Notes: a model not told the origin generated them from the letters alone. A stretch of 64,000 bases of DNA from Candidatus Caenarcanales bacterium (GCA_020050435.1 JAGVKQ010000011.1:3350-67349), one strand, 5' to 3'; counted from the first letter of the stretch, positions 5,185 to 55,349 are shown. Numbers and translations: made by a program.

Positions 5185-6342
5185 ATGCGCACATTTGAAG
5201 AAATTAATGAAAAAATCAAAAATTCTAAGATAAAAGTTCTAACAGCACTGGAAGCAAAAAACTATATTAAAGAAAAGGGAATTAACTCTTTTTCATCTGA
5301 TATTGATGTCGTTACCTGTGCTAGTTTTGAAATGCATACAAATGCGCTTCTCTACTTGAGTTTTGGTCAAACAGATCCAATGATTTATTTTCAGGAAGTT
5401 TCAGTTAATGGTGTTCCTGCTTACCCTACTGGTCCTACTGATATAGCCATATCATGTGTCTCTTCCTCTAAGGATGACATAAATTATAGTGGTGCAAATA
5501 TTTTGGAAGACCTTCTTTTGGGCAAGAATCTACATTTGAAAGCTGTGGGAAAACATTCAGGAGTTTTTCCAAATAGAGAATTTGAGACTTGGTTTAATTT
5601 AAAAGATGTTAATCAAAGTAGATTACTTTTAAATCAATCGCTAAATCAAAACAATATCGTGGCTTGTAATTCCAGTGATAATGACATTAATTCACATATG
5701 GGCACTTTAATAGGTAAATTAGAAAATTCAACTTTTAACTCTTCAACCTTCTTGAATCCATTAATTAATGATCCATTTTGTAAAACAATCGGTGTTGGTA
5801 CAAGTGTATGGATAGCTGGTTCTAGGGGAGTTATTGTAGGACATGGAAGTTCTCATAACCCTAATCAAAAAAGAAATGAATATGGTATCCCTGTTGGTCC
5901 TTCTATTACATTGTCTAGCATTGTAGATATCTCTTCAATGAATCCTAAGTGGGTGAAGCCAGGTCATATCCAGTCATTTGGACCTGTTCTATTTATTAGC
6001 GTTGCTATTGCTATTCCAGTTTTAAATAAAGAAATTGCAGAGTGCCTTTCAATAACTGATGATAAAATCCACACAACGATTGTGGACTTTTCTATCCCTA
6101 GAAGAACAAAACCAACTTTTGGTCAATGTACCTATGCTGAGCTTAGGACAAGTACAGTATCCATTAATAATAAACCTACATTAACAGCGCCGCTTACTAG
6201 TATGGCTTACTCTATAGAGTCATGCAATGAGCTAAAAAATGATATATTGAATAAAAAATTTATTCTATCAAAACCTACATCTGAGATTAATATGGGTGTG
6301 GAATTGAAAAAACTTGATGCAAAGCTTGGAGAGTTAGTCTAA
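5185..6342 (+). CDS. DUF39/COG1900-like protein, homologous to the L-aspartate-semialdehyde sulfurtransferase family used by methanogens for homocysteine biosynthesis. The motifs are divergent.
   Basis: The N-terminus RTFEEINEKIK..KVLTA.E......DVVT resembles the DUF39 start KTIEEINEKI..AVVVTAEE...VDVVTTG recalled from memory. GVGTSVWIAGSRGVIVGHGSSHNP resembles the DUF39 glycine-rich block. The match could not be verified computationally. Confidence 0.45.
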   Translation: MRTFEEINEKIKNSKIKVLTALEAKNYIKEKGINSFSSDIDVVTCASFEMHTNALLYLSFGQTDPMIYFQEVSVNGVPAYPTGPTDIAISCVSSSKDDINYSGANILEDLLLGKNLHLKAVGKHSGVFPNREFETWFNLKDVNQSRLLLNQSLNQNNIVACNSSDNDINSHMGTLIGKLENSTFNSSTFLNPLINDPFCKTIGVGTSVWIAGSRGVIVGHGSSHNPNQKRNEYGIPVGPSITLSSIVDISSMNPKWVKPGHIQSFGPVLFISVAIAIPVLNKEIAECLSITDDKIHTTIVDFSIPRRTKPTFGQCTYAELRTSTVSINNKPTLTAPLTSMAYSIESCNELKNDILNKKFILSKPTSEINMGVELKKLDAKLGELV

Positions 6343-13645: not shown

Positions 13646-16600
13646 CTATAAAAATATAAACAACAGGAATAACGAATAAAGTAAAAATAGTAGAGAATGC
13701 TAATCCACCTACGATGGCTGTTCCCATTGCAATTCTACTTTCTGCACCTGCTCCATGTGCTAATGCAAGTGGAAGACTTCCTAAAATCATTGCTAAGCTA
13801 GTCATTATGATTGGTCTAAACCTAACTTCAGATGCGTGTAAAACTGCATTTGTTAACTCATCACCATTGGCTCTGGATTGATTTGCCATTTCTACAATTA
13901 ATATTGCATTTTTTGTTACTAATCCAACAAGTAAAATAATTCCAATTGCACTGTAAAGATTTAATGTTTGATTGCAAGCAAGAAGGGTTAACAATGCACC
14001 AAGTAATGCCAATGGCACGCTTAAAAGAATAGTAAGTGGATGTATAAAACTTTCAAACAATCCAGCTAGGACTAAATAAATAAAAATAATAGATAAAATA
14101 AATGTCAATAATAAAGAAGCAGAGGTTTCCGTAAACTCTCTTGAGACTCCAGAATAAGTATATGAAAATCCTTCTTTTAACTCATCTTTTACAATTTTTG
14201 TTACTTTTTCCAGAGCAGGACCAAGTGTAAATCCAGGTAATAAGCTAGCTGTTATGGTTACAGATCTTTGTAAATCATAATGGTTAATTTGAGAAGGGGC
14301 AACTACAGGTTTAATATCTATTAGGCTATCAAGTGAAACTAGAGCACCATTTTTAGATCTCAAATAAATTTCTTTTATGTTGTCTGGAATGCTTTTATAT
14401 TTAGGGTATAGTCCTGTGATTACGTCATATTGTTTACTTCTTAAAATAAAGTCATTTGTTTTTCCCTCTGAAAGTAAGACCTGGAGACTCATTGAAATAT
14501 CTGCTACAGATATTCCTAAGTCGCTGGCTTTTTCTCTGTTGAAAACTATATTTAATTGAGGATTGCTTATTAACAAATCGCTATCTACATTTATTAATCC
14601 AGGAAGTTGTTTAATTTTTGATATAACGGAATTTGTGATTTGCTCAACTTCTTCTATATCTGCACTACTTTTTATTACAACTTCTATGTCTTTTGTAAGG
14701 GCACTTCCACCTAGTGATGGTGGATTTATTGGGAATACAAATGCTCCTGGCAATCGCATAAACTTAGGAAAAAGTTGATTAACTAAATCTTGTTGCTTTA
14801 CTTTTCTTTTATCCCAATCTATAAGTCTAGAAAAGACAAGTCCATTGCTGGGATTTGCTGGTCCACCTGCAGCTAGTCCAATAGCTGAAAAATAAACTTC
14901 TACTTCTTTAATCATTGTTATTTCTTTTTCAACTTCTATTTGTGTTCTGTTTGTATAGGCATTGGTGGATCCTTGTGGGGCTTTTACTATGGTTACAATT
15001 AATCCTCTGTCTTCAATTGGTGTAGAAGTTTTTGGGAAAGTGTAAACTAGTACTCCACTTGCAATAATATTTATAATAAGAAAGATTGAAATAACAGTTT
15101 TGTTTTTTATTGCCCATCTTAAGTTCTTTTGATATCCAATGTTAAGCCAGTTTATTGCTTTGTCAGTAATGTTTACTTTATGATTTTTTTCTTTTTTAAA
15201 CTGAAGAAATTTAGAGCAAAGAGCAGGGATTAATGTAAGTGCTACAATTCCAGAAATTGCTACTGAAGCTGCTACAGTAAGAGCAAATTCTTTAAACTGT
15301 CTTCCTACTGCACCAGTAAGGGTAGAAAGTGGTATAAAAACTGCCACGAGTGAAACAGTTGTTGCTATTACAGGAAATGCTATTTCTTTACTACCATTAA
15401 ATGCAGCTTTTAATTTATCTTCTCCCATTTCTTGCCTTCTGAAAATATTTTCCAGAACTACTATGGCATCATCTACAACAAGCCCAATAGCTAGAACTAA
15501 TCCAAGTAAAGTTAAAACATTTGCGGAGAAATCTAGGGCGTACATTGCTGCAAAGGTTCCAATGATTGAAACAGGAATAGATAGTGAAGCAATGAGAGTG
15601 GCTGTTTTAGATTTTAAGAATATTAATGTAACAAGAATTACTAGCATAAAAGCAAAAGCCAAAGAGTTAGTTACTTCGCGAAGAGATGCTTTAACAAATC
15701 TAGAGTTATCAACAGCAATAACAAGATCAATGTCTTTTGGTATAGAATTACGGATTGAAGGGAGTGATTTCTTTACCTCTTCAGCCACTTTTAATTCATT
15801 TGCTTTTGACTGTTTTATGACACCTACAGCTACTACAGACTCACCATTAAATCTAATAATTGTGTCGTAATTTGTAGAGCCGAGCTCCACACTACCTATA
15901 TCTTTTATTCTGACAATGTTTCCATTTTCTTCTTTAATAATCAAACTTTCAAATATTTTAGGATTAGAAATTTGCCCATCAGCAAGAACGTTAAATTGTC
16001 TTGTTTGACCTTTAATTTGACCTGCTGGGAGTTGAAGGTTATTGTCTAGAATAGTTTTTCTTATTTCATCAGGAGAGACATTTTTTGCTGACATTTTTTT
16101 TGGATCGAGCCAAATCCTCATGGCATATTTTCTTTGCCCACCAATTAAAATGCTCCCTACACCAGGAAGAATTTGAAGTGGAGTTTTTACCTGCCTGTCA
16201 GCAATGTCAGATAAAAGTTCAGGAGTGTATTTCTTTTTTTTATCTACTAGTACTATCCACATTAATGCTTGGGAGTTTGCTGTAGATTTAGCTATTATAG
16301 GTTTGTCTGCTGATTGAGGGATTTTACCTAAAGCACTTTGAATGACATTGTTTACGTCATTTGCAGCATCATCTATCGCTCTAGATGTTTGAAATTCTAC
16401 ATTTATACTGCTGACACCATTTGAACTGATAGATCTAATGGATCTAATATCTCTAATACCATTTAGTGCTTGTTCAAGTGGTTCAGTTATTGTATTTTCT
16501 ATGGTTTCAGGACTTGCTCCTAGGTAGGTAGTAGTTATAGATACGACTGGTGTTTCAATATCTGGATATTCCCTTACTGCTAATTTACTTAATGCTGCAA

Positions 16601-21630: not shown

Positions 21631-21764
21631 TAACTTATAGTGCTAATCCAGAAAATTGTCATTGCGAGGAGGATGAAATCCGACGAAGCAATCTTGCTTG
21701 ACCGATATTGCTTTGTGAGATTGCCACGTCGCCACTTCGTGGCTCCTCGCAATGACACAGTTCA
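21631..21764. mobile_element. MITE-like nested palindromic element (family A: gtcattgcgag...ctcgcaatgac) flanked by a 15-bp direct repeat TTAAAGCTCAGCAGC at 21616-21630 and 21765-21779
   Basis: The outer inverted repeat is tgtcattgcgaggagg / cctcctcgcaatgaca and the inner one is gaagcaatct..agattgc. The perfect 15-bp flanking duplication contains the stop codons of both convergent genes. Confidence 0.6.
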
Positions 21765-23435
21765 TTAAAGCTCAGCAGCAGCTAATTCACCACGTTTAAT
21801 AATTTCTTCTTTAGTTAGCTTTTCTTCACTAGAAACTGATTTGTAAAATTCAGAATCATATCTTCTAGTACGCACTACAATAGGCATTGGCATAGCATAG
21901 CCAAACATTAATACTTCTTGTTTAGGGTTTAGCTGGGAAAGAATAGCTTTTAATTCCTGTCCACCAGACTCCCCTACAAACACGGCATTGATATCATTCT
22001 CATCATTTAAAAGAAGAGTGGCTCTCGTTCCTATCTGAGACATTATTTCATTGTCGATTCCTGATGGTCTTTGATCTACGATTAAAAGGGTGACATTATA
22101 TTTTCTAAGTTCACGAGCTATGATGCCAAAAGTTGAAAATCTGGCTACCTGTGGAGATAAAAACTTATGTGCTTCTTCTATAGTGATAACTAATCTCTTA
22201 GGCGGCTGGTATTTATCTGGTGCTAATAAATACTTTTCAGTCATATCTACATAAGCTGCATGGATGTGTCTGGTAATAATGTTTGCAGCTAGCATATAAC
22301 TTTTTAAATTACTAAGTCTTCCAAACTGTAAAACTACACTTCTGCCACTGGTTAGAAAGCTAAGAATTTTTTTAATGCCATCAAAACTAGTGACTGATTT
22401 TAAGTATTTTACTGAATCTACTAATGTGTTTAATTTTCTTTGAAGAGCTAGTATGGAACCCTGATTAGCACCATACTGAGCACAGAACTCTTCTATGTGT
22501 CCTACTGTCATATTGCAAAGTTTATTAAACCAGTCTCTTTCATATTCTCTTTGAATCATTCGAGCATGATCTATCATAGCCTCAGATAAGCCTAGTTCGC
22601 TTTGAAGTAGTTCTAAGTCTTCTATATCTATCTGGCTAAATGCTATTTCTAATGTCTGTGCATCTTTAAATGTATAAGATTTATTGTCTGGATCTAGTGT
22701 GAAAACTTCTATCTTGTCGTTAAATAATTGCTTTAATCCTTTTGATGAGGCTTGTTTTTCATCTGTACCTTGCCAGCCGTACTCATTGTGCATGTCAAAA
22801 ATTAATACACTGGCAGCATCTTTTTTCAATATTCCTGAAAGAAGTATTCTGCTCAAGAATGATTTTCCTGTTCCAGACTTTCCAAACACAGCATTTGATC
22901 TTTCTACAAACTTTTCAAGATTTATACAAAGTGGAATGTCCATTTCAGCAGGATAGCCAATGTGAAAGTTTTTATTATTCTTTTCATCTTTCCCAAAGAT
23001 TTCTTCTATGTCATTTTCTGTGGCTTCATATACAGAGGAGAAGTGTGGTGGAATGGTTTTTACTTTAGGGACATCTTCTAAAGACTTTTTATTAGTTAAG
23101 TCGACCATTAAGAATGGAGTTAAATGTACTAATCCATATACAGAAGTACCCTTTAAAACCTCTTTAATAAAACTATCGTTAGGTGATGGAATATGATTTA
23201 AGAATTTAGCATTAGAAGATTGAAGTTCTATATCTGTAACCATTGAGAAAAATTTATTTCTTTCTCCTTGTATGACTACGAATTTCCCAATTCTTAATTT
23301 TTCAATATCATAGCTATTGTCTAATTTTAAAAGTAAGCCTTTAGTGAAGGATCCTGAGACCACCTGACCAACGAGGCTTTGTGCTAACGTGCCTACGTTC
23401 CCACGTTCCGACGAATCTGTTTTATAGTCCTTCAT
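21765..23435 (-). CDS. HerA/FtsK-like P-loop ATPase (DUF87-type, HerA-like helicase)
   Basis: 556 aa with an N-terminal beta-barrel-like region, Walker A FGKSGTGKSF, the HerA-typical ITIEEAHKF block, and Walker B/Arg-finger region LLIVDQRPSGID. Confidence 0.75.
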   Translation of the reverse strand: MKDYKTDSSERGNVGTLAQSLVGQVVSGSFTKGLLLKLDNSYDIEKLRIGKFVVIQGERNKFFSMVTDIELQSSNAKFLNHIPSPNDSFIKEVLKGTSVYGLVHLTPFLMVDLTNKKSLEDVPKVKTIPPHFSSVYEATENDIEEIFGKDEKNNKNFHIGYPAEMDIPLCINLEKFVERSNAVFGKSGTGKSFLSRILLSGILKKDAASVLIFDMHNEYGWQGTDEKQASSKGLKQLFNDKIEVFTLDPDNKSYTFKDAQTLEIAFSQIDIEDLELLQSELGLSEAMIDHARMIQREYERDWFNKLCNMTVGHIEEFCAQYGANQGSILALQRKLNTLVDSVKYLKSVTSFDGIKKILSFLTSGRSVVLQFGRLSNLKSYMLAANIITRHIHAAYVDMTEKYLLAPDKYQPPKRLVITIEEAHKFLSPQVARFSTFGIIARELRKYNVTLLIVDQRPSGIDNEIMSQIGTRATLLLNDENDINAVFVGESGGQELKAILSQLNPKQEVLMFGYAMPMPIVVRTRRYDSEFYKSVSSEEKLTKEEIIKRGELAAAEL

Positions 23436-23466
23436 AGTCCTATATTGTCCTTTATAGTCCTATAAC
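23421..23466. promoter_or_regulatory. Four helically phased 10-bp direct repeats (t-w-atagtcc; GGACTAT on the minus strand) spanning the pxpA stop, the 25-bp intergenic gap and the HerA-like start codon
   Basis: Read directly: tttatagtcc ttcatagtcc tatattgtcc tttatagtcc. The core is related to the GGACTAT cores of repeat family B. Confidence 0.3.
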
Positions 23467-28761: not shown

Positions 28762-28796
28762 AACAGTTGATGGTTTGATAGTTGATGGTTTGATGG

Positions 28797-29321
28797 TTAT
28801 TTGAACCTTCGCTTGAATTTAAATGCACTCTTGTAAATTGTTTTTAAATCTTTTTTTAAGACTGGATGAATCAATTTTTTTTCTAGTTCTAATAATGGAA
28901 TTAAAACAAAATATCTTTTTTCAATTTTTGGATGAGGAATGATCAAGTTCTTAGTTTTAACAATTTTATTTCCATAAAAAAGAATGTCTAGGTCAATTGT
29001 CCTGGAGAAATACTGACGAGATGGCGAAACGCCCCATCTTTTTTCTCTCCCCAGCTTCCTCTCAACCCCCTTGCAAACTTTTAGCAATTGCAATGGTGTC
29101 AGCGAGGTCTCTATTTTAATTGCCCCATTTAAAAAATAACCAGACTTAATCCCTTCTTGTGGTGGGTTTTTAAGCATTTTTGAAATTTGTATAATTTTTA
29201 TCTTTTTATTTTTGCTTAGTAGATCAAGAGCATTGTTAAGATTTTTCTTTCTATTGCCTTTATTTGTACCTATGCCAAGGAGGACGGTTGATGGTTTATG
29301 GTTTTTGGTTGATGATTTCAT
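28797..29321 (-). CDS. folK: 2-amino-4-hydroxy-6-hydroxymethyldihydropteridine pyrophosphokinase (HPPK)
   Basis: 174 aa. The IDLDILFYG motif and the GPRTIDLDIL-like region are typical of FolK. Confidence 0.85.
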   Translation of the reverse strand: MKSSTKNHKPSTVLLGIGTNKGNRKKNLNNALDLLSKNKKIKIIQISKMLKNPPQEGIKSGYFLNGAIKIETSLTPLQLLKVCKGVERKLGREKRWGVSPSRQYFSRTIDLDILFYGNKIVKTKNLIIPHPKIEKRYFVLIPLLELEKKLIHPVLKKDLKTIYKSAFKFKRRFK

Positions 29322-29606
29322 GATCTTATGGTTTGATAGTCTTATGGTCTCATAGCTTCATGGTTTTCTTAACCATTTAACCAAATTATGAATAATGAAC
29401 TCCATTCTTTTAACAAACAGATAAAACGTACTACGTTTTACCAAACCTTAAGTAAATTTTAATGATCTTATAAAAAATGGCCTTGACTTTAAAAGTTAAG
29501 ATTTAGTAAAGTGTAAGTATATAGTCAATGACTATAGTTCTAAAGTTCATATCTGATCTATATAAAATAAGCATATAAGATAACAATATTTAAGGAAGGC
29601 ATACAA

Positions 29607-32432: not shown

Positions 32433-33131
32433 TTGAAGTACATGTCAGACAAAGATAAAAATAAAAGTGTTGAAGATGAAAATATCACTATTAAGGATTC
32501 TGCAAATAAGCTAGATCTTTCAGAAGCGACTGTAAAAAAATATTTAAAGGATTTTGAACTCCCATTTGGTAAAGGTCCAGCAAATAAAGCATTGATTTCT
32601 AATGATACTTTTCAGGCTTTAACTGAAATTGCAAAACTTAGAGCTAATGGTTTATCTATCCAGGAAATTAAAGAATTAAAAACAGAAGAGCCATCTAAGC
32701 ACATTGCTGATGAAATTGAAGAAGTCCCAGTATTAGAACAAATTAAACCAAAAGAAGAAACAGAACTAGTAGAATCTTTAATTGCAGAAGAACTTACTGA
32801 AGTGTTAGATATTCCATCTTTAGAAGATTTATCAGCTTCTGAAAGTTCATCTGAAACAGCAGCAGATGCTGAAGAAGATGCGGCTGAAGGTACTCAAGAT
32901 GAATCTGAAGGTGAAGAAGACGAGTCTACTCAAAGACGTAGAAGAGGCTTTAACTATAGATATGTAGAAAGACAAATATCTGCAGATTCAAAAAGAGTTT
33001 CATCTATTAGAATACGATTAAAAAATCCAAATCTCTCTGTTCAAGACAGAATGTTTTTTGATGAAGCGCTTGAGAGAAGAATCTTATTTTTAAACGGTTG
33101 GAAACATATCCTTAAATGGATTGCAAAGTAA
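32433..33131 (+). CDS. Hypothetical protein with an N-terminal MerR-like helix-turn-helix and a long acidic (E/D/S-rich) linker
   Basis: The HTH-like segment is KLDLSEATVKKYLKDFELPF...GLSIQEIKEL. The acidic tract is AADAEEDAAEGTQDESEGEEDE. Confidence 0.35.
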   Translation: MKYMSDKDKNKSVEDENITIKDSANKLDLSEATVKKYLKDFELPFGKGPANKALISNDTFQALTEIAKLRANGLSIQEIKELKTEEPSKHIADEIEEVPVLEQIKPKEETELVESLIAEELTEVLDIPSLEDLSASESSSETAADAEEDAAEGTQDESEGEEDESTQRRRRGFNYRYVERQISADSKRVSSIRIRLKNPNLSVQDRMFFDEALERRILFLNGWKHILKWIAK

Positions 33132-35229: not shown

Positions 35230-35979
35230 ATGGATGTAAACGCTGAAGTTAACAATTTAATTTCTAAAGCATTTTCTCTAGTTAATGAGGATAAAAATAA
35301 TGAAGCTTTTGAAATTGTAAATGCCATTTCTTCTGATAAATATGTAAATAACTTAAATAAAGATCATTTCCAGGCAATTGGAGATATTTGCTTGTCTTTA
35401 GGCAAGTTTGAATTAGCTAAAGATTTTTACCTGAAAGCTGAAAATCCAGAAGCAGCAAGCCTGGCTCTAATTGCTCTTGATGACTTAGATGAAGCTAGCA
35501 AGTTGCTTCTAAAGTGTCCAAAGTCCCCACCATCAACATGGTGTAATTTTCTAATTGATGTATTTAATGAAAAAGCAATTAAACAATGGCCTTCTTTTTT
35601 AGAAATCAGACACTTTATGGAATTAACTGTTTATAGTCTTTTACTGGGAAAGAGGCATTATTTTATATCACTTCTTCTGAAAAGGTTAAATCGATTATTA
35701 GATATAAATATAGATTCTGAAAAGTTAATAGGCTATGCATATTTTCATTATGGTGACTTAGACAATGCAATTAAATTTTTAAAGTCTTCTATTCGTAAGA
35801 ACCGTACGGATGGAGAAATATATTTTGTTCTTGGGCAGATAAGCTTAGAAAAAGGAGATTTAAAAGAGTCACTTTCAATGCTTGAAAATGCAAAAACATT
35901 ATTGGCTAACCATTACCCTAGTAAGAAATTATATGAAGAGGTGAAGGCTGCTTTGTCATTGCGAACCCTGAAAGGGTGA
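35230..35979 (+). CDS. Hypothetical helical, TPR-like protein (249 aa). Its last 9 codons and the stop lie inside a family A palindromic repeat.
   Basis: It is an ORF only. The C-terminal ALSLRTLKG* is encoded by the repeat gctttgtcattgcgaaccctgaaagggtga. Confidence 0.4.
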   Translation: MDVNAEVNNLISKAFSLVNEDKNNEAFEIVNAISSDKYVNNLNKDHFQAIGDICLSLGKFELAKDFYLKAENPEAASLALIALDDLDEASKLLLKCPKSPPSTWCNFLIDVFNEKAIKQWPSFLEIRHFMELTVYSLLLGKRHYFISLLLKRLNRLLDINIDSEKLIGYAYFHYGDLDNAIKFLKSSIRKNRTDGEIYFVLGQISLEKGDLKESLSMLENAKTLLANHYPSKKLYEEVKAALSLRTLKG

Positions 35980-36038
35980 AGCAATCTCACAAGCAAAATC
36001 GGTCAAGTAAGATTGCTTCGCCTTTGGCTCGCAATGAC
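35955..36038. repeat. Family A nested palindromic repeat, copy 2 (gtcattgcgaaccc...gggctcgcaatgac with inner gcaatctcac...agattgc)
   Basis: Read directly from the sequence, between convergent genes. Confidence 0.6.
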
Positions 36039-44105: not shown

Positions 44106-44228
44106 ATTTGCTCCTAATAAGATTAAACCATAAATAATTATAGTTTGCTTGCTGTTTTTAGACCATATAAGTTCATCCTTTAGCATGAATTACTTGTAAG
44201 CAAATGATTCCCACTGTAGAATTATGTT

Positions 44229-45131: not shown

Positions 45132-45153
45132 AGACGTTGTATACAATGTAAAA

Positions 45154-45229
45154 TGTCATTCTGAAGGAGTGAAACGAACAAGAATCTATTTTCGTTGATG
45201 GATTCTTCGCTAACGCTCAGAATGACACT
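45154..45229. repeat. Family A-variant nested palindromic repeat (gtcattctgaagg...gctcagaatgac with inner cgaacaagaatc...gattcttcgc), abutting the folE stop codon
   Basis: Read directly. Confidence 0.5.
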
Positions 45230-45827: not shown

Positions 45828-45885
45828 TGTTTAATTTTAACCCACTTGTATTTTTAGGTTTTCTTTAGAATTTAACCTTACTATT

Positions 45886-45984
45886 GTCATTGCGAGCCCT
45901 GAATGAAATGAAGGGCGTGGCAATCTCAGTTGACCAATATTGTATTGTGAGATTGCTTCACTCATTTCATGGGTTCGCAATGAC
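45886..45984. repeat. Family A nested palindromic repeat, copy 4 (gtcattgcgagccc...gggttcgcaatgac with inner ggcaatctca...tgagattgc)
   Basis: Read directly, in the folE-ilvH intergenic region. Confidence 0.6.
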
Positions 45985-46054
45985 TTTTATCCTTGATTTC
46001 TTCGCACATCTTTGCAAATAATGATAAACTGTAAAACACTAATTTAGAGGTCAC

Positions 46055-46588
46055 ATGCAAAGAGTATTATCAGTTTTAGTAGAAAATGAATCAGGTGTTT
46101 TAACTAGAATCGCTGGTCTTTTTTCCAGAAGAGGTTTTAACATTGAATCCTTAACGGTGGGACCTACTGAAAATCCTTCTTACGCAAGAATTACAATATC
46201 AGTTGCTGGTAGTAATCGCGCTGTTGAACAAATAACTAAACAGCTTCATAAATTAATCAACGTAATTAAAATTACAGATTTAACTGAATTAAGTTTTGTT
46301 GATAGAGAACTTGCTTTGATAAAAGTATCTTCTAATGCCACAACAAGGGCAGAAATTATTCAAATTGCAGATTTATTTAGAGGACATATTGTAGACGTTG
46401 CTGAAGATGTTTTTATTATAGAAGTTACAGGCGATCAAGGAAAAATAAATGCCATTGTTCATTTGTTAGGAAAGTTTGGAATTAAAGAAATAGCCAGAAC
46501 TGGTAGGGTAGCCCTATCTAGAGGCGTGAAGATCGACCAACAATTAGCACCTAACAGGATACCCCTGAGAATGGTTACTAGCACTTAG
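46055..46588 (+). CDS. ilvH: Acetolactate synthase small (regulatory) subunit, ACT domain protein
   Basis: MQRVLSVLVENESGVLTRIAGLFSRRGFNIESLTV is the canonical IlvH/IlvN ACT domain, and the protein is 177 aa. No large-subunit gene is adjacent. Confidence 0.8.
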   Translation: MQRVLSVLVENESGVLTRIAGLFSRRGFNIESLTVGPTENPSYARITISVAGSNRAVEQITKQLHKLINVIKITDLTELSFVDRELALIKVSSNATTRAEIIQIADLFRGHIVDVAEDVFIIEVTGDQGKINAIVHLLGKFGIKEIARTGRVALSRGVKIDQQLAPNRIPLRMVTST

Positions 46589-46690
46589 GGAAGACCATTT
46601 AAACCATAGGACTATTGAGACTATAACGTTTTAAAGTATGGTCTTATCGTCTCCATAGTCTTTATTGTCTTTCCCTTAGTCTTCCCATAA
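46589..46690. repeat. Family B palindromic repeat, copy 1 (agaccattt...ataggactattgagac...atggtcttatcgtctccatagtcttt)
   Basis: It shares about 90 bp with 50054-50140 and carries the GGACTAT / ATAGTCC inverted cores. Confidence 0.5.
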
Positions 46691-46764
46691 CAATCATTTG
46701 CTTTACTACAGATGTACAGATGTCCTACTGGGATACTATTTATTCTTTCTAAGGAATATTTTTT

Positions 46765-47289
46765 ATGGCAGTTCCTACTGCAACAACTTCAGCACCAACA
46801 CCATCATCAACTGGATCAGCTCCTGCTGTTCAACCAGTTGATCCAAATAATCCTCCAAAGCCAGCAGCACCGACTACTGGAACAGGTGTAGCCGCACCTG
46901 GAGATAAATTTGTTAAAGCTGATAATGCTGAGACTAATGACACAGGAAAAGAAGAAGAAGCAAAAGGTGCAATGGCTTCAGTAAAAGCAATTTTAAGTAG
47001 AATACATTTATTAATAACATCTACAGTAAGGATTGTTAATTCTATGGCAAGGTTTGCCATATTTGGTACTGTTGTAGGTTTATCTAGACAAGGTGTTGAT
47101 TTACTTCAAGGATTACTAGGATCTGGTGATTTTAAGAATTCTGCTTTAAAAGGTAATCTCACAGGACTCTTGAGCTTAATTAATACTGTTTTAGGATCAG
47201 CTAAGGACTCTGCTAGTTTTTGGCAAGATGACATTAAAATTGTTAGAGATTTGAAAAAAGGATTTGATGATAACTCTAAACTTGCATAA
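46765..47289 (+). CDS. Hypothetical protein (174 aa) with a Pro/Thr/Ala-rich N-terminus and a hydrophobic middle
   Basis: There is a Shine-Dalgarno (AAGGA). The N-terminus is AVPTATTSAPTPSSTGSAPAVQP. It is the first gene of the co-oriented hypothetical cluster. Confidence 0.45.
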   Translation: MAVPTATTSAPTPSSTGSAPAVQPVDPNNPPKPAAPTTGTGVAAPGDKFVKADNAETNDTGKEEEAKGAMASVKAILSRIHLLITSTVRIVNSMARFAIFGTVVGLSRQGVDLLQGLLGSGDFKNSALKGNLTGLLSLINTVLGSAKDSASFWQDDIKIVRDLKKGFDDNSKLA

Positions 47290-47300
47290 ATTCTAGGTAA

Positions 47301-47331
47301 GGGTCTTGCATTCAAGACCCTCTGTTTATCT
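47301..47331 (+). terminator. Terminator hairpin gggtcttgcattcaagaccc followed by a T-rich tract
   Basis: It has a 7-bp GC-rich stem. The loop carries the gcattca motif shared with two other terminators in this cluster. Confidence 0.5.
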
Positions 47332-47445
47332 CCATCGAATAGTTTTACGACACCCCTTTTTTCATAACTTTCCTTTAATAATCCTCTGCTTAACTACATC
47401 CACGTAGGAGAGAAGTCTCAAATTGTATTTAGAAAAGGGTGATTT

Positions 47446-48090
47446 ATGTCAGATGGATTAAATATAGTAAGTCAAAATAATAAGAACTTAAGCACAGTTC
47501 TTGCGGCCGATAGTGTTAAATCAGACTTTCAAGGTAGTGACCAAAGAAAGCTTGGTGAAGACCTTATAAAAGAAAGCCTTAAGCATGCAGGTGATTCACA
47601 AGCACAAGCAGAAAAAGCAAGAGACTATTTAAATGCAGCAGATAATTTAGAAAGAATGGCTAAGGCTGTAAGATCTCAAGCAAAAAGAATTAAAGAAAAT
47701 GATGTTAAGCCTGAAGATGCAGTAAAACAAATATCAGAAGTTTTTGGTAACCAAGTTCAAATGCCTCTTCCTAAAGATGCTACACCTGAACAATTAGAAA
47801 GTATTGCAGATGATTTAGAAGCAAAAGCAAAAGAAAATAGAAGAATTGCTGATGATCTTTTAAAAGACTCTGAACATAAAGAAGCATTATCACTTAAATT
47901 AAAAGAACAAGCTATGTTAATGGTAAAAAAAGAAACAGGAGCAGATTCTCTTAGGATGAAGTCTGTAACTGCTCACAATGAAGGACTAAGTATGGTCTTT
48001 AAAAAGTTAGGAATTTACAACGTAGATATGCAGTACAAAGAACAGGTTGCATATGCTAGTAGAAAGGCTTCAGAGAAAGGTTTAATGTAA
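47446..48090 (+). CDS. Hypothetical charged alpha-helical protein (214 aa)
   Basis: There is a Shine-Dalgarno (AAAGGGTGA). The protein is K/E/A/D-rich and predicted helical, with no motif. Confidence 0.45.
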   Translation: MSDGLNIVSQNNKNLSTVLAADSVKSDFQGSDQRKLGEDLIKESLKHAGDSQAQAEKARDYLNAADNLERMAKAVRSQAKRIKENDVKPEDAVKQISEVFGNQVQMPLPKDATPEQLESIADDLEAKAKENRRIADDLLKDSEHKEALSLKLKEQAMLMVKKETGADSLRMKSVTAHNEGLSMVFKKLGIYNVDMQYKEQVAYASRKASEKGLM

Positions 48091-48129
48091 TTTCACTTAA
48101 AGGTGGAATTTAAATAAAGGAGAAAAGTT

Positions 48130-49980
48130 ATGTTTATATTACAGATAAATAATCCAGCACAAGTACAAAAAACAGGCAAAGGAAATGGAATTACAGATTT
48201 TCCTAATGGACAGGCAGCATGGAATGGAACAACCTATGGTTCACGTAAAGAAGCTGAAGCTGCTTGGAACGCCAGCTTTAACTCTAGGGGTGGTATGAGG
48301 GCTCCCCAAAACAATGGTGGTGGTAATGCTAAGGCACAACAAAAAGTAGCTCGTGGAAACGATATGATGCAAGGTGGTCATGCAAAAATTCAAGTAGGTA
48401 ATGATGATGTCCAAGGTGGAGGAGCTAAAGTAGAAAAAGGAAATGGAAATGTTAAGTCTGGTGGAGAGAAAGTTAAAACAGGAAATGAAAAAGTTAATGG
48501 AGGAAATACTAAACTCAAGTCAGGAAATGAAAAGATTGCAACAGGAAAAGGAAAGGTAGAAACTGGTAATACTAAAATAGAAGAAGGTAGTGCAAAAATT
48601 AAAGAAGGTCAAGAGAAACTAAATGGATCTCCTGCTAATGCAGATGCTCAAACTGGAATTAAAGAAGGAGAAGCTAAAATAAACTCCGGTAATGAAAAAA
48701 TTACAGGTGGTCAAACAAAACTTACAGATGGTCAAGCAAAACTTACAGATGGTCAAGGTAAGGTAACCGCTGGACAAGGAAAAGTTACTACTGGACAAGG
48801 ACTTGTTCAAACAGGTCAAGGAAACATACAGGCTGGAGGTGCAAAAGTTCAGGCAGGTCAAGCTACCGTTGCAGCAGGACAAGCTTTAGCTGGTCAAGCT
48901 CAGGCATTAATGGCAGATCCTAAAACTGCTGCTCAAGGTCAGGCAATGATGCAGCAAGCACAAGGTCAAATTCAAAAAGGACAAGCTGAAATCCAGGAAG
49001 GTCAACAAAAAATTCAACAAGGACAAAAAGAAGTTGCTGATGGTCAGTCTCAAATTCAAACTGGTCAAGCTGAAGTAAGTCAAGGGAATGCTGATGTTCA
49101 GAAAGGTCAAGCAGATATACAAGCTGGACAAGCAGATATTCAACAAGGACAGCAAGAAGTACAAGAAGGGCAACAAAAAGTAACTGAAGGTCAAGCAAAA
49201 ACAGATGGTAGTGCTGAAGCTGGTGAAGCAAATGAACTTATTAATGCAGGTAAAGCATTACTTGATGCAGGAAAAACTGAAGTCAAAGCTGGCAATGATG
49301 ATGTCAAAGCAGGAAGTGATGAAGTTGAAGCCGGAAAGAAAGATGTAGATGTTGGAAGTAAAGAGGTTGGAGAAGGAAATAAACTTGTAGAATTAGGAAA
49401 TAAAGATGTGGGCGATGGAAATAAAGATGTAGATAAAGGTCAAAAGAATATTGGTGATGGAAATAAAGATGTCCAGGCTGGACAAGATTTGGTAAAAGAA
49501 GGTGACGCTGCAGGCGGTGGTGGTGGTCCTGGCGGAGCTGGTGCTGGTGGTGCTCAACCACAAACCCCAGATGCATCAGGTGGAGCAAGTCCTGGTGGTG
49601 GTGATGGAGGCGGTGGTGATGGTAAAGAAGCAAAATCCGGTGATGGAACTGCTAATGGATACCTTCAGGCTGCAAAAGCTTTATTAAAACAAATTGGACA
49701 AATCTCGCAAGCAATGTCTGGAAATGCAAATCCTATTATTCAGATAGCTAAAAATCTTACGAATAAAGGACTTGCTGAACAAGCAGTTGCATATCTTGAA
49801 GCTGCACAGGTAGATTCTACCATTGGTGGTCAGTCTATAAATCAAGATATTATTCTTACAAAGGCTATGGCATCTACTTGTAAAGGTGATGCAGATACAA
49901 ACATAAACTTCTGGAAAGAAACTCTTGCAGACAACAAATCTCTTGGTAAGGCCACTCATGACTTAGCGAAGATGGCGTAG
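48130..49980 (+). CDS. 616-aa repeat protein made of more than 100 tandem heptads of the form G-[QN]-x-[KD]-[VI]-x-x, a poly-Gly linker and a conserved ~110-aa C-terminal module
   Basis: There is a strong Shine-Dalgarno (AAGGAGAAAAG). Examples of the heptads are GNEKVNG, GNTKLKS, GQADIQA and GQQEVQE. The C-terminal ANGYLQAAKALLKQIGQISQAM...DLAKMA module is shared with two downstream paralogs. Confidence 0.6.
   Translation: MFILQINNPAQVQKTGKGNGITDFPNGQAAWNGTTYGSRKEAEAAWNASFNSRGGMRAPQNNGGGNAKAQQKVARGNDMMQGGHAKIQVGNDDVQGGGAKVEKGNGNVKSGGEKVKTGNEKVNGGNTKLKSGNEKIATGKGKVETGNTKIEEGSAKIKEGQEKLNGSPANADAQTGIKEGEAKINSGNEKITGGQTKLTDGQAKLTDGQGKVTAGQGKVTTGQGLVQTGQGNIQAGGAKVQAGQATVAAGQALAGQAQALMADPKTAAQGQAMMQQAQGQIQKGQAEIQEGQQKIQQGQKEVADGQSQIQTGQAEVSQGNADVQKGQADIQAGQADIQQGQQEVQEGQQKVTEGQAKTDGSAEAGEANELINAGKALLDAGKTEVKAGNDDVKAGSDEVEAGKKDVDVGSKEVGEGNKLVELGNKDVGDGNKDVDKGQKNIGDGNKDVQAGQDLVKEGDAAGGGGGPGGAGAGGAQPQTPDASGGASPGGGDGGGGDGKEAKSGDGTANGYLQAAKALLKQIGQISQAMSGNANPIIQIAKNLTNKGLAEQAVAYLEAAQVDSTIGGQSINQDIILTKAMASTCKGDADTNINFWKETLADNKSLGKATHDLAKMA
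48340..49500 (+). repeat. Coding 21-bp tandem repeat array, the heptad repeats of the 616-aa protein
   Basis: There is a clear 21-nt periodicity, for example ggtcaagcagatatacaagct / ggacaagcagatattcaacaa. Confidence 0.7.
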
Positions 49981-50006
49981 TCTAGCGATTAGATTATTAG
50001 AAATTG

Positions 50007-50040
50007 AAAAGAGAAGGCATTCATGGTCTTCTCTTTTTGT
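50007..50040 (+). terminator. Terminator-like hairpin aaagagaaggcattcatggtcttctcttt followed by ttgtttgttt
   Basis: The stem is about 9 bp with one mismatch. The loop contains gcattca. Confidence 0.45.
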
Positions 50041-50053
50041 TTGTTTATCTTTT

Positions 50054-50140
50054 AAGACCATTTGACAATAGGACTATGGAGACCATGTCGTCTCACAAAA
50101 ATGGTCTTATGGTCTCCATAGTCTTTATAGTCTACCCCTA
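50054..50140. repeat. Family B palindromic repeat, copy 2 (taggactatggagaccat ... atggtctccatagtcttta)
   Basis: Its arms form an approximately 18-bp inverted repeat, and it is a near-copy of 46589-46690. Confidence 0.5.
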
Positions 50141-50217
50141 GATAACGTTCTCTTAAATATGTCCCTGTTAAATGTCCTGTAACTAGTTCAAAACTAGTAT
50201 AGGAATTTTACATTGTT

Positions 50218-51129
50218 ATGAGACATATAAATTCAACAAACAATATTAATAAAAAACCTGATGTAAATAAGTCAGATAATGCTTCTCAGGAGTCTCCTGC
50301 CCTAAAAGCAGCTAATGCAAAACTCTTACAATCAATGCAATCACAAGCTCAATCAATAAGAAATTTGTCACAAGCCCCATCACAAAATAATCAGGATTTA
50401 AATGTAATTAAAGATAGAAATCAATCTTTATTAGACTTTGATAAAGCTAAAGTTGAATCATTAAAAGAAGATTCTACTAATACAAATAATCAATCAATAG
50501 AAACAGAGGATGCTTCTGGTGGTAGTGCTTATAGTGGTGGATTTTTATTAGGCAAAGATGATTCTACTGGATATAAGGGATATGACCAGTCTCGTGCAAA
50601 TGATTGGAAAGAAGGTAAAGGAATATATTCTACTGGTGGAGCATATTCAACATATACAGGAAATGGTGCAGAAAATCTTAGTGGTTCTGGAGGAGCTGGT
50701 TCTGGTAATGCTGGAAATCAAAATGTAGGAGCTAGTTCTGGTAATGCAAATTCTGGTGGAGGAGTTTCTACTTCTGATAGCGGAAGTGCTGCTGGAAGTG
50801 CAAACGGATACTTGCAGGCTGCAAAAGCATTATTAAAACAAATCGGACAAATCTCACAAGCAATGGCTGGAAATGCAAATCCTATTATTCAGATAGCTAA
50901 AAACCTTACTAATAAAGGGCTTTCAGAGCAGGCAGTAGCATATTTAGAAGCAGCTCAGGTAGATACTACTCTCGGTGGTCAGGCTATAAATCAAGAAATT
51001 ATTTTAACGAAAGCTCAGGCAAGTACTATTAAAGGTGATTCAGATACTAATATTAATTATTGGAAAGAAACTCTTGCAGACAATAAATCTATGGGCAAGG
51101 CTACTCATGACTTAGCTAAGATGGCGTAA
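50218..51129 (+). CDS. Hypothetical protein (303 aa), paralog family member with an MxHINS N-terminus, a G/S/N-rich middle and the conserved C-terminal module
   Basis: The N-terminus MRHINSTNNINKKPD...KAANAKLLQSMQSQAQS is shared with the 51366 gene. The C-terminal 110 aa are about 85% nucleotide-identical to the 3' end of the 616-aa gene. Confidence 0.6.
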   Translation: MRHINSTNNINKKPDVNKSDNASQESPALKAANAKLLQSMQSQAQSIRNLSQAPSQNNQDLNVIKDRNQSLLDFDKAKVESLKEDSTNTNNQSIETEDASGGSAYSGGFLLGKDDSTGYKGYDQSRANDWKEGKGIYSTGGAYSTYTGNGAENLSGSGGAGSGNAGNQNVGASSGNANSGGGVSTSDSGSAAGSANGYLQAAKALLKQIGQISQAMAGNANPIIQIAKNLTNKGLSEQAVAYLEAAQVDTTLGGQAINQEIILTKAQASTIKGDSDTNINYWKETLADNKSMGKATHDLAKMA

Positions 51130-51159
51130 CGTAGCATAAATCGTTTTGTTAATTACCCT

Positions 51160-51187
51160 GTAGGGGCATTGCATTCAATGCCCCTAC
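51160..51187 (+). terminator. Strong terminator hairpin gtaggggcattg catt caatgcccctac followed by ctcttttac
   Basis: The 12-bp stem is perfect, and it contains gcattca as well. Confidence 0.6.
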
Positions 51188-51365
51188 TCTCTTTTACACC
51201 AACATTTTTATTGGACATTGTTCTCCTTGTTCTGTTCTCCCCTAAAAGTCCTTTTTGCCTTTATTCTCCTTTGTTCTCCTTTGTTCTCCATAACTTTCCC
51301 TTAAATATTCCCCTGTTAAATACCCTTTAACTAGCTCAAAACTAGTATAGGGATATTACATTGTT

Positions 51366-52643
51366 ATGAAGCATATAAATTCAATAAATGGAATTAACCA
51401 ACAGGCCGATTTAAGTAAGCCAGGTAATAACGTTGAGGATGTTTCATCACAAAAAGCTGCTAACAGTAAATTGCTTTCTTCTCTTCAATCACAATCTCAA
51501 TCAATGCGAGCTGCAGCACAAGATAATTCACAATTAAGTTCTAGTAAAATAAATGAAAGAGCAGAGTACTCTAAAGATTTTAATAACTCAAATAAAACAT
51601 CACAAGAGTCTAGCGAAACATCAGTAAATAAAATTAAAGAATCTATTGATTTAATGAGTAGTTCATTTTTCAAAAAGACTGAATCAAGATTACTTAAAGA
51701 ACAAGCAAAAACTGAACCTGGTGAAGTTGCTCAGGAATTAAAAAGACAATCTAAAGAAAAACTAAAAGAGGCAATAGCAGATTTTAGAGGTTCATTTAAG
51801 GCTTACAATAAATCACAAGAAGAGGATATGAATGCATTTCAAGCAAGCATGGACGCTTCTAATTCTCAAGACTTAGCTTCTGGTGCACAATCTCAATCTA
51901 ATCAAGCTCAAGTTAAAGCGGTGACTTATAATAATCAGGCAAATAGAACATCAGCAGAAGCTACAACTGTACAAACCCAACAAACACAAAGTCAGTCAGT
52001 GCAACCTCAGTCATCACAAACTCAGTCAGGAGAAACTAAGGATGCTTCTGGTGGGAGTTTATTTGGACCTAATGCAGGATTATTTTCAAATCCTTCCCCT
52101 ACTGCATACAATGGGATGGATCAATCTCGTGCTAATGATTCTCGTAATAGTAAAGGAATCTTTGCTACTGGAGGCGGAGTCTCAGAAATTACAGGAAATG
52201 GTGCAGTAAATTCTAACAATAATGCTAATGCTAATGCTAATGCTAGTGCTGGTGCTTCAAATGGTGCAGATCCTTCCGTTGACACTAATGGTGCTGATGG
52301 ACTTAGCGCTGCAGGTAATGCATATTTAGATGCAGCACGTATGATGCTTAGAGTAGTTATGCAAGTAACGATTGGTGCGAGAAGTTCAAATCCAATTGTT
52401 CAAATATCAAAAAACCTAACTAATAAATCTTTGTCCGACCAAGCTATAGCATATTTAGAAGCAGCAAACGTTGACACTGCTCTTAATGGTACAGCAGTAA
52501 ATCAACAAATAATTCTTACTAAAGCTCAAGCAAGTACTATTAGTGGTGAAGCACAAACAGGTATTAATTACTGGAAACAAGTTCTTGAAGGTAACAAACA
52601 ACTTCAAAAAGAAACACATGATATGTCTAAGGCTGCAGGGTAA
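51366..52643 (+). CDS. Hypothetical protein (425 aa), the third paralog, with an MKHINS N-terminus, a Q/S/N-rich middle and a more divergent copy of the C-terminal module
   Basis: MKHINSINGINQQAD...KAANSKLLSSLQSQSQS at the N-terminus and C-terminal GNAYLDAAR...NPIVQISKNLTNKSLSDQAIAYLEAANVD...ILTKAQAST...NYWK are shared with the other paralogs. The 5' leader is near-identical to that of the 50218 gene. Confidence 0.6.
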   Translation: MKHINSINGINQQADLSKPGNNVEDVSSQKAANSKLLSSLQSQSQSMRAAAQDNSQLSSSKINERAEYSKDFNNSNKTSQESSETSVNKIKESIDLMSSSFFKKTESRLLKEQAKTEPGEVAQELKRQSKEKLKEAIADFRGSFKAYNKSQEEDMNAFQASMDASNSQDLASGAQSQSNQAQVKAVTYNNQANRTSAEATTVQTQQTQSQSVQPQSSQTQSGETKDASGGSLFGPNAGLFSNPSPTAYNGMDQSRANDSRNSKGIFATGGGVSEITGNGAVNSNNNANANANASAGASNGADPSVDTNGADGLSAAGNAYLDAARMMLRVVMQVTIGARSSNPIVQISKNLTNKSLSDQAIAYLEAANVDTALNGTAVNQQIILTKAQASTISGEAQTGINYWKQVLEGNKQLQKETHDMSKAAG

Positions 52644-52692
52644 TAGTAGATAGTATTTTTTTTGTCAAAAAATATGTTGTATACTATGAAAC

Positions 52693-55018: not shown

Positions 55019-55105
55019 GGACAGGTGTTCGAGTGGTTTATGAAGATAGTCTTGAAAACTATTGATGCCGTAAGGTATCCGGGGGTTCGAATCCCTCCCT
55101 GTCCT
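55019..55105 (+). tRNA. tRNA-Ser (anticodon UGA), class II with a long variable arm
   Basis: Manual fold: acceptor ggacagg/cctgtcc, D-arm ttc/gaa, anticodon stem atagt/actat with loop cttgaaa (anticodon TGA), a long variable arm, and T-arm ggggg-ttcgaat-ccctc. CCA is not encoded. Confidence 0.8.
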
Positions 55106-55162
55106 AATTTTAGTTTCAAGTTGTCAGTTACAAGTTGCAAGGAAAACTCAGAAAAAAATTTA

Positions 55163-55192
55163 GGTTACAAGGTTCTCCTTGTAACTTAAAAC
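55163..55192 (+). terminator. Hairpin ggttacaagg ttctc cttgtaac followed by ttaaaactt, downstream of tRNA-Ser
   Basis: It has a 9-bp stem, read directly. Additional inverted repeats (agtttcaag / cttgaaact) flank it. Confidence 0.4.
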
Positions 55193-55349
55193 TTAAGTCT
55201 TGAAACTGTCGTCATACATAATTAAAAGTTTTCTATGTAAAACACAATCTTATAAGAGTATAAAATTTAGATTTATTTATTGTATTAACGTGTAATATCT
55301 TACTGATAAAATTTATATATTTATTGCACCTATCTAAGGATATTATTTT

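Follow-up and report, generated by a model that had tools for sequence, protein, structure and literature searches.

Two copies of a palindromic tandem-unit repeat at gene boundaries in an accessory island of a Candidatus Caenarcanales bacterium

The studied region of a Candidatus Caenarcanales bacterium (GCA_020050435.1, JAGVKQ010000011.1:3350-67349; 64,000 nt, here called the window) contains two full copies of a palindromic repeat of about 90 nt, family B, at the places where an earlier note on this DNA had put them. Both BLAST and nhmmer recover the pair. BLAST aligns 46591-46676 with 50054-50139 over 87 columns at 81.6% identity with 2 gaps (E 9e-17), and nhmmer bounds the copies at 46589-46679 (copy A) and 50053-50140 (copy B), 3.46 kb apart in one 6-kb island. 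The similarity is confined to a module of ~87 nt between unrelated flanks; judged by this alignment, only the module was copied. We give about an even chance to the explanation that family B is a strain-specific, non-coding palindromic module, similar to MITEs/REPINs and to short tandemly repeated repetitive (STRR) sequences, whose effect, if any, is that of a passive hairpin.

Copy A (46589..46679, plus strand) is a 91-nt imperfect palindrome, as delimited by its alignment to copy B, the unit map and the RNA fold, and it begins directly 3' of the ilvH stop codon (46586-46588). Its left arm (~46589-46624) carries minus-oriented heptamers at 46592, 46601, 46609 and 46618, its loop occupies ~46625-46637, and its right arm (46638-46679) has heptamers at 46638, 46646, 46655 and 46664. 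Copy B (50053..50140, plus strand) is the better preserved of the two. In this 88-nt palindrome the inner stem measures 17 bp (AGGACTATGGAGACCAT / ATGGTCTCCATAGTCTT); the left arm has heptamers at 50055, 50071 and 50080 together with a degenerate TGACAAT read from the sequence at 50063, and the right arm has heptamers at 50101, 50109, 50118 and 50127. Each copy thus comprises 4 + 4 heptamers with the core ATRGTCY, spaced at 8-9 nt. The minus-oriented heptamers (AGACCAT, AAACCAT, GGACTAT, AGACTAT) come first and the plus-oriented ones (ATGGTCT, ATSGTCT, ATAGTCT, ATWGTCT) follow, and the order of the unit variants in both arms, as well as part of the loop, is common to the two copies. Of the inverted cores GGACTAT / ATAGTCC previously ascribed to the family, GGACTAT is present in the left arms, but the right arms have ATAGTCT, and exact ATAGTCC occurs within the window only at the HerA site described below. 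The units are imperfect, 8 or 9 nt long and four per arm, which differs from the long runs of near-perfect identical units expected of STRRs; TRF reports a score of only 33 at copy B and makes no call at copy A. Clusters of at least three ATRGTYY heptamers number 5 in the 64-kb window vs 0.05 expected from first-order Markov simulations of it, so the clustering of the heptamer is not due to chance. One of these five, at 44125-44166, is inside a coding gene and was not counted in the feature.

Both copies are predicted to fold as RNA (-28.4 kcal/mol, z -3.7 for copy A; -32.1 kcal/mol, z -4.8 for copy B), with arms of ~35-40 nt pairing as terminal inverted repeats. The outer stem is formed at copy A by GTCTTCCC (46679-46686) pairing with GGGAAGAC (46588-46595), and at copy B by TTATCT/AGATAA. 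The inner stem of copy A differs at two positions, both uncompensated mismatches; this comparison was made by eye on two sequences and so has no statistical power. Several functional classes were considered and set aside. The copies have no conserved ORF in common, which argues against a coding role. A known RNA family is likewise rejected: across the whole window only rRNA and tRNA pass the Rfam 15 gathering score, and at relaxed thresholds copy B yields only sub-threshold matches to miRNA hairpins. The terminator scan reported terminators at 47300, 50005 and 51160 and none at copy A or B. The hairpins lack a U-tract, the sequences directly after them being CCCATAAC and CCCCTAGATAAC, and at copy B a terminator role would be unneeded because the canonical intrinsic terminator of a 616-aa gene (50005..50039, plus strand), which lies outside the repeat, already stands 13 nt upstream. 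A sigma-70 promoter inside the element was rejected, as copy A has one 9/12 match in a region that overall does not exceed shuffled expectation. An attC or cassette-boundary site was also rejected: the palindrome reads GTT...AAC outward, the reverse of the RYYYAAC...GTTRRRY order, the two cassettes of a related locus (L001, below) share no end motifs, and no integrase is present in the window. Hairpins of like architecture but other unit sequence occur elsewhere in the window at 2584-2690 and 55105-55215, and L001 has a canonical terminator at the second of these positions. Other palindromes of the clade also come and go between strains: family A occurs in L050 but is missing from the orthologous position in L001, and family C was seen in L001 only.

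Immediately 3' of each copy lies a gene's conserved upstream block, and both genes belong to a variable accessory island between ilvH and mlaE whose proteins have no match in Pfam, NCBIfam or PDB sequences. The block of the 174-aa gene (46680..46710, plus strand; TCTTCCCATAAC-N7-TGCTTTAC) is the ancestral flank of copy A and is present in the related loci L004 and L001. The block of the 303-aa gene (50141..50217, plus strand; ATAAC-N19-TGTTAAAT ... AACTAG-N6-AACTAGTA) has conserved counterparts in L001 and in L006, which is more distant. At its right end copy B grades into promoter-proximal sequence, part of which is conserved in L001 and L006, and the unit GTCTA-YCCC-AGATAAC found there is common to the window and L006. 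The 425-aa paralog has a direct 10-nt array called by TRF (CCTTTGTTCT x3.2; 51258..51289, plus strand) directly 5' of its ATAAC block, in the position of the right arms of family B, with a different unit and without an inverted arm. Within the window the family B motif is absent at two of the four paralog promoters. The 5-mer CTTAG is directly repeated at either end of copy A (46584-46588 and 46675-46679); no comparable direct repeat was seen in the flanks of copy B. No transposase or RAYT gene was found among the ORFs scanned in the 64-kb window.

Comparison with relatives identifies three allelic states at site A. In L004 the site is empty, with TCTTCCCATAAC following the ilvH stop directly; the window has the palindrome; and L001, L002 and L003 have an 811-nt cassette composed of a PIN gene and a 66-aa gene. 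In L001 a segment of 685 nt, with two small genes on the minus strand, occupies the interval corresponding to site B. Derivation of the module from these L001 cassettes was rejected for lack of significant similarity, and a match to the AACGTTT loop was not significant. All outgroups examined lack the module, which by this comparison is a gain in the present lineage relative to the empty allele and to every one of them. No further copy was found in ~190 kb of relatives' loci (partly redundant). Scanning genome contigs with the repeat returned a single chance match, in Streptosporangium; the 22 loci from a metagenome scan were coding or chance matches, with the exception of an apparently eukaryotic foldback array (L019); and the sole match in two viral scans was phage coding sequence. 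Clusters of ATRGTYY were likewise absent (0) from ~150 kb of relatives' loci (partly redundant, with orthologous upstream regions included); the sister strain L038 (folK to HerA) was compared separately, by eye. Orthologous sites in relatives have arrays with other unit sequences, or none. The orthologous promoter of the 425-aa paralog in L001 (13495-13700) repeats the architecture of family B in other units, with ~15 units of the 9-mer GATAAGGCT followed by inverted AGCCTTAT units. Since the copies are missing from relatives, their appearance is that of spacer DNA that evolves fast or is mobile, not that of a conserved control site.

Fragments of family B had also been claimed at folK and at the start of a HerA-like gene. 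The strings on which that claim rested are real, with tggtttgatagt at 28771 and 29329, one on either side of folK, and tcttatggtctcatagc at 29340. The array upstream of folK (29283..29368, plus strand) comprises, according to TRF, ~11 units of 7-8 nt, GTYTNATG (ACCATNAR on the folK strand), and spans the first ~13 folK codons into the folK upstream region. The stretch 29336-29364 matches the full copies only without significance (BLAST E 0.036, nhmmer E 2.9). At this position L038 has a different filler of 165 nt with GGTTGAGGT x3 and a hairpin, again a similar architecture in another unit. The downstream array (28762..28798, plus strand; a 15-mer x2.3 or an 8-mer x4 by TRF) includes the previously noted tandem 15-mer, at 28765-28798, has a 12-mer in common with the upstream array and fills the space between the stop codons of two convergent genes, a 356-aa gene and folK; the array is absent in L038, where these two genes lie 1 nt apart. 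The folK arrays extend a unit, AAACCATCA, that both strains already have in the N-terminal coding sequence of folK, and so do not appear to be relics of family B. At HerA, the phased tetramer of atagtcc is a 10-nt-period array, TTTATAGTCC x4 (AGGACTATRA on the HerA strand; TRF score 61), which is placed at 23421..23466 (plus strand) and was confirmed at 23421-23461. It covers the LamB/YcsF stop codon, a 24-nt spacer and the HerA ATG with the first codons, and its match to the full copies is not significant (E 5). In L038 the array has 3 units and the spacer 14 nt, vs 4 units and 24 nt here, so this array is ancestral and changes by whole units. A second array nearby, given for context (23387..23413, plus strand; 8-nt-period ACGTTCCC x3.4 by TRF), has a different unit and lies inside the N-terminal coding region of HerA, ~30 nt of which is extra relative to the sister strain in an approximate comparison by eye. 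The folK and HerA arrays share the heptamer with family B, but their similarity to the full copies is not significant, and by sequence they form short tandem arrays of their own. The suggestion that all these repeats are relics of one element is accordingly retained for the full copies, given the module-only similarity, the polymorphism at site A and the outgroups without the module, and abandoned for the arrays at folK and HerA. Across strains, many short tandem arrays and palindromes peculiar to one strain build up at gene boundaries in this lineage.

Under our preferred explanation, tandem units generated by slippage, together with an inverted duplication, would have built the module, which would then have been copied once into a second intergenic slot. 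Copying may have occurred by transposition, or by template switching or illegitimate recombination within the island, and we lean to local copying because the two copies have the same position and orientation relative to the paralogous upstream blocks. We infer that the module, like MITEs/REPINs and STRRs, is a kind of selfish or near-neutral DNA. Read-through from the upstream gene is predicted to produce a long RNA hairpin that would stop or stabilize the upstream transcript and insulate the upstream block of the downstream gene, which is likely its promoter region. The effect is most likely passive, an RNA hairpin acting as a barrier between genes, and not that of a sequence-specific regulatory site.

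The same observations could be explained by a true non-autonomous element of the MITE/REPIN type, both copies of which were inserted by a transposase encoded elsewhere that recognizes the subterminal heptamers or the hairpin. Module-only similarity between unrelated flanks, the empty-site allele, the CTTAG direct repeat at copy A and the terminal inverted arms all suit this explanation, and other palindromic families of the clade act like mobile insertions. However, dispersal is the hallmark of mobile elements, and here two copies are known, both within a single island and at equivalent positions upstream of paralogous blocks. No target duplication was seen at copy B, no copy was found in relatives or in any collection scanned, and no transposase was found in the 64 kb; we consider such an element unlikely, though deserving of some weight. 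The opposite case, in which nothing was copied between sites and the repeats are a neutral by-product, would have the arrays grow separately from similar paralogous seeds and acquire inverted arms by template switching. The outer stems do differ from site to site and are drawn from ancestral flank (GGGAAGAC/GTCTTCCC at A, TTATCT/AGATAA at B), a seed-like unit, TAATCTTCCC, exists in the empty allele of L004, and the HerA site changes by whole units. Yet the copies agree at 82% over 87 nt, their unit variants succeed one another identically in each arm, and they have part of the loop in common; because independent slippage would not yield such agreement, we regard independent growth as quite improbable.

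A regulatory function can be imagined in two forms. An operator or upstream activating array, its 4+4 heptamers coated by a small DNA-binding protein (e.g. of the ribbon-helix-helix type) that co-regulates the island genes, folK and HerA, would fit copies placed directly 5' of conserved upstream blocks, the regular 8-9-bp spacing of direct and inverted units, heptamer clusters at five places where 0.05 are expected, and the GTCTA-YCCC-AGATAAC unit shared with distant L006. This is in essence the common regulator that the earlier note had invoked, and the relatives do not support it: their ~150 kb of loci contain 0 ATRGTYY clusters, and their orthologous promoters have other unit sequences or none. 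Moreover, the motif is missing at two of the four paralog promoters in the window, the array downstream of folK sits between two stop codons, and the units are imperfect and variable in length, so that we find a shared operator distinctly unlikely. We think it very improbable that the arrays upstream of the paralogs are contingency promoter modules, variable in phase or strength, in which gain or loss of units, inversion of an arm or replacement by a cassette would tune a hypervariable, lineage-restricted protein family, or alternatively that the hairpins mark landing slots for small toxin-antitoxin-like cassettes.

The result is mainly a cautionary one, in that the family B repeat is real and non-random, yet dispensable. 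It should not be annotated as a regulatory site or regulon, because the comparison with sister strains shows it to be dispensable and strain-specific. Melainabacteria-like uncultivated genomes (an assignment that follows from the source names of folK homologues) carry fast-turnover intergenic DNA of short tandem and palindromic form, a kind known from Cyanobacteria. The hypervariable intergenic slots of the ilvH-mlaE island, for which three or more allelic states are known (empty, palindrome, and a small-gene cassette that at site A contains PIN), might be of use as strain markers or in modelling, on a small scale, how such slots evolve.

Among known systems, REPINs are doublets of REP sequences that form hairpins (Bertels and Rainey 2011, PMC3116915). 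Family B resembles MITEs and REPINs as a ~90-nt, non-coding, intergenic imperfect palindrome of inverted sub-repeats that is present or absent between close strains and coexists with other palindromic families in the genome. It differs in its two known copies, both local, in a window without RAYT or other transposase, in a target duplication seen at one copy only, and in arms made of tandem 8-9-nt units. Simple repeats of short units are represented by the long simple sequence repeats of 5-11 nt of Mrazek et al. 2007, as far as these are summarised in MacGregor 2015 (PMC4679880), and by the TAACTGA-type intergenic heptamer arrays of MacGregor 2015 (PMC4679880). In the foldback array of L019, inverted arrays of the 9-mer ATAGTCTCY, also a unit of the family B type, flank a central segment, but they number 75 and 99 units around a 1.4-kb center. 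That metagenome locus looks eukaryotic, and the shared unit is most likely a coincidence.

The ribbon-helix-helix repressors MetJ and omega bind, respectively, 8-bp metboxes (AGACGTCT) and 7-bp heptads in direct and inverted orientation. Family B shares with their operators contiguous 7-9-bp units, direct and inverted, beside promoters, and units containing GTCT/AGAC; unlike them, it lacks a cognate regulator, is not conserved at orthologous promoters and has degenerate units. The small dispersed repeats (SDR) of Nostoc, attributed to Elhai et al. 2008, are reportedly 21-27 nt long and highly repeated genome-wide. They too are very small repeats between genes of the cyanobacterial lineage, where hairpins and tandem heptamers accompany them, but family B, unlike the SDRs, is known from two copies. 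STRR heptamers are said to have been described in cyanobacteria by Mazel et al. in 1990. The units here are 8-10 nt long, imperfect and variable in length, number 3-4 per arm, are inverted into a hairpin and vary in sequence by site and strain, all of which sets them apart from STRRs. The likeness lies in short head-to-tail units at gene boundaries that are strain-specific and undergo whole-unit indels (4 vs 3 at HerA), in a host that belongs to the sister lineage of Cyanobacteria.

The two copies of family B, a palindromic repeat of about 90 nt, occupy 46589-46679 (copy A, site A) and 50053-50140 (copy B, site B). They align over 87 columns (46591-46676 versus 50054-50139) at 81.6% identity (BLAST, E 9e-17), confirming the full copies that the earlier note had placed at 46589-46690 and 50054-50140. 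Searched against the window plus roughly 190 kb of partly redundant loci from relatives, an nhmmer profile of the pair found only these two, apart from their self-matches on the reverse strand. Each copy comprises four minus-oriented heptamers (RRACYAT) followed by four plus-oriented heptamers (ATNGTCT), spaced 8-9 nt; the right arms read ATAGTCT instead of the ATAGTCC that had been proposed as the inverted core. As RNA, both are predicted to fold into long imperfect hairpins (copy A, -28.4 kcal/mol, z -3.7; copy B, -32.1 kcal/mol, z -4.8), with a perfect inner stem of 17 bp in copy B and two uncompensated mismatches in that of copy A. The whole repeat, here called the module, is non-coding, because no ORF is conserved between the copies, and it matched no RNA family. 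Genome and metagenome scans with the core, like viral scans, gave only chance or unrelated matches. Within the window, clusters of at least three ATRGTYY heptamers occur at 23424, 29328, 46592 and 50055, with a further one at 44125 that lies inside a coding gene and was left out of the count; simulation predicted 0.05 such clusters.

The window has a G+C content of about 32% and Gram-negative-type housekeeping genes (aroK, dnaB, ddl, folK, folE, pdxA, ilvH, mlaEFD, sdhAB and the start of a 16S rRNA gene), and close FolK homologues carry source names pointing to Candidatus Melainabacteria. The only evident transcription factor among the window ORFs scanned is a MerR-family regulator (32433-33131), for which no link to the repeats was seen. 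Both family B copies lie in an island bordered by ilvH (46055-46588) on the left and mlaE (from 52693) on the right, in which five hypothetical genes are clustered (46765-52643). A C-terminal domain of roughly 110 aa, unmatched in Pfam, NCBIfam and PDB sequences, is common to three of the five encoded proteins (616, 303 and 425 aa). Their N-termini are of low complexity, the 616-aa gene contains 21-nt (7-aa) repeats, and the terminators of the island genes have a GCATTCA loop in common. The island genes are also preceded by a conserved block, YATAAC, N7 or N18/19, TGNTTWAY (46684, 47365, 50141 and 51289), which recurs in relatives (loci L001, L006, L008, L010, L012, L013, L014 and L050) and may represent a promoter or 5' UTR element specific to the lineage. 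The right ends of both family B copies are directly 5' of this block. Copy A follows the ilvH stop codon without a gap; copy B is preceded by a canonical terminator (50005-50039).

Comparison with relatives provides the deciding evidence for the reading of family B. The sister-strain contig L001 has the same gene order and 87-94% nucleotide identity to the window. At site A its homology breaks off at the ilvH stop codon and picks up again at 46674; the slot (window 46589-46673) is filled by 811 nt (L001 7952-8762) carrying a PIN-domain gene (158 aa) and a 66-aa gene on the minus strand, a cassette also present in L002 and L003. In L004, whose IlvH is identical to that of the window, site A is empty, with TAA followed directly by TCTTCCCATAAC. 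Site A is therefore found in three allelic states: palindrome (window), gene-pair cassette (L001-L003) and empty (L004). The site B slot (window 49981-50134) holds 685 nt in L001 (11834-12518), with two small minus-strand genes (66 and 67 aa). The slots taken up by the small-gene pairs of L001 are the very ones in which family B lies in the window. The module resembles neither cassette, and the two cassettes have no end motifs in common. In more distant relatives (L010, L012, L013-L015 and L050) the module is missing from the spacers, which measure 110-330 nt. The module is therefore a gain of the window's lineage, in slots open to other insertions as well. It is strain-specific and dispensable.

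The earlier note had also seen related fragments at folK and at the HerA-like start. The quoted strings do occur there, but do not match the full copies significantly (folK-upstream array, E 0.036 with BLAST and 2.9 with nhmmer; HerA start, E 5). They are separate short tandem arrays, rather than the relics of family B that had been suggested, and share the heptamer alone. At the HerA start, GGACTAT units with a 10-nt period number four in the window versus three in L038, the sister strain's folK-to-HerA segment, so the array is ancestral, with a difference of one whole unit between strains. The window has a further array in the first HerA codons (23387-23413), roughly 30 nt of 8-nt units, that L038 lacks. 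Downstream of folK, a 35-nt array (28762-28796) between convergent genes is specific to the window, since these genes are 1 nt apart in L038. An ACCAT-rich N-terminal coding extension of folK (HKPST) occurs in both; 5' of the ATG, the window has eight additional units, in place of which L038 carries a 165-nt stretch containing GGTTGAGGT x3 and a strong hairpin (z -4.9). In the window the ACCAT-rich repeat makes up the first ~13 folK codons (29283-29321), and most FolK homologues, with query coverage of about 87%, are without it. The window arrays at 23387-23413 and 29283-29321 extend into coding sequence.

The architecture of family B, with different unit sequences, is a lineage-wide habit. 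In L001, an array at 13495-13700 (orthologous to window 51130-51290) combines about 15 tandem copies of the 9-mer GATAAGGCT with 4-5 inverted AGCCTTAT units behind them. It directly precedes the conserved block upstream of the 425-aa gene's orthologue, and the gene caller annotated it as a 42-aa ORF. GATAAGGCT-type units also occur at site A of L001, and the window carries CCTTTGTTCT x3.2 at the same place as the L001 array (51258-51289). Two window hairpins, at 2584-2690 between aroK and dnaB and at 55105-55215 just past tRNA-Ser, have arms that by eye resemble tandem 7-9-nt units (GGATAGAGGAC / GTCCTCTATCC, and ACAAGTT-type); at the latter position an ordinary intrinsic terminator takes the place of the hairpin in L001. 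The three family A palindromes (GTCATTGCGAG ... CTCGCAATGAC; 21650-21755, 35950-36035 and 45872-46012; fold z about -6) look like mobile palindromic elements. The copy at 45872-46012 is absent at the orthologous L001 spot, and the more distant L050 has a family A copy in the same folE-ilvH slot. A shorter palindrome (45132-45227) is likewise missing at its orthologous spot in L001. Two copies of a third palindromic family (GTATACCGTC ... GACGGTATAC) were seen in L001 only (5740-5845 and 14945-15075); the window lacks the family at the orthologous positions (44187-44228 and 52644-52692). In the metagenome contig L019, inverted arrays of the 9-mer ATAGTCTCY (75 and 99 copies; 896-1580 and 2973-3862) flank a 1.4-kb segment, a foldback-type structure also present in L020 and L028. 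These contigs look like eukaryotic DNA, and the 9-mer that they share with the family B arms is most likely a coincidence.

Family B is best read as a small palindromic repeat of the MITE/REPIN and STRR kind. The copies agree with each other, arm by arm, in the succession of their unit variants and their flanks are unrelated, which points to a single copying event. Copying may have been local and independent of a transposase, as the copies lie within 3.5 kb of each other and are placed and oriented alike with respect to paralogous blocks, their outer stems draw on ancestral flank specific to each site, copy B lacks a target duplication, and no transposase was found in the window. An allele with an empty site, a direct repeat (CTTAG) at copy A and the mobile appearance of the sister palindrome families would instead favour a MITE. 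A minor rival is an operator array for a common regulator, kept because the regular 8-9-bp spacing, direct and inverted, resembles operator arrays of ribbon-helix-helix repressors; this reading, also raised in the earlier note, fails the conservation test, as the loci from relatives, about 150 kb, contain no ATRGTYY cluster.

The functional consequence of family B is likely passive: in transcripts that read through from the upstream gene, its predicted hairpin would form a stable structure ahead of the next gene's upstream block. Lacking a U-tract, neither hairpin qualifies as an intrinsic terminator in the usual sense.

Among known repeats, short tandem repeats of 5-11 nt, heptamers above all, are abundant and strain-specific in some Cyanobacteria and are ascribed to slippage, with regulatory roles suggested by some authors (PMC4679880). 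REPINs are doublets that form hairpins and are moved by RAYT transposases; the REPIN paper calls the small dispersed repeats of Nostoc related short interspersed repeats, whose origin its approach might account for (PMC3116915). Family B adds a very small new family to the repeats of this general kind, in a host lineage sister to the Cyanobacteria.
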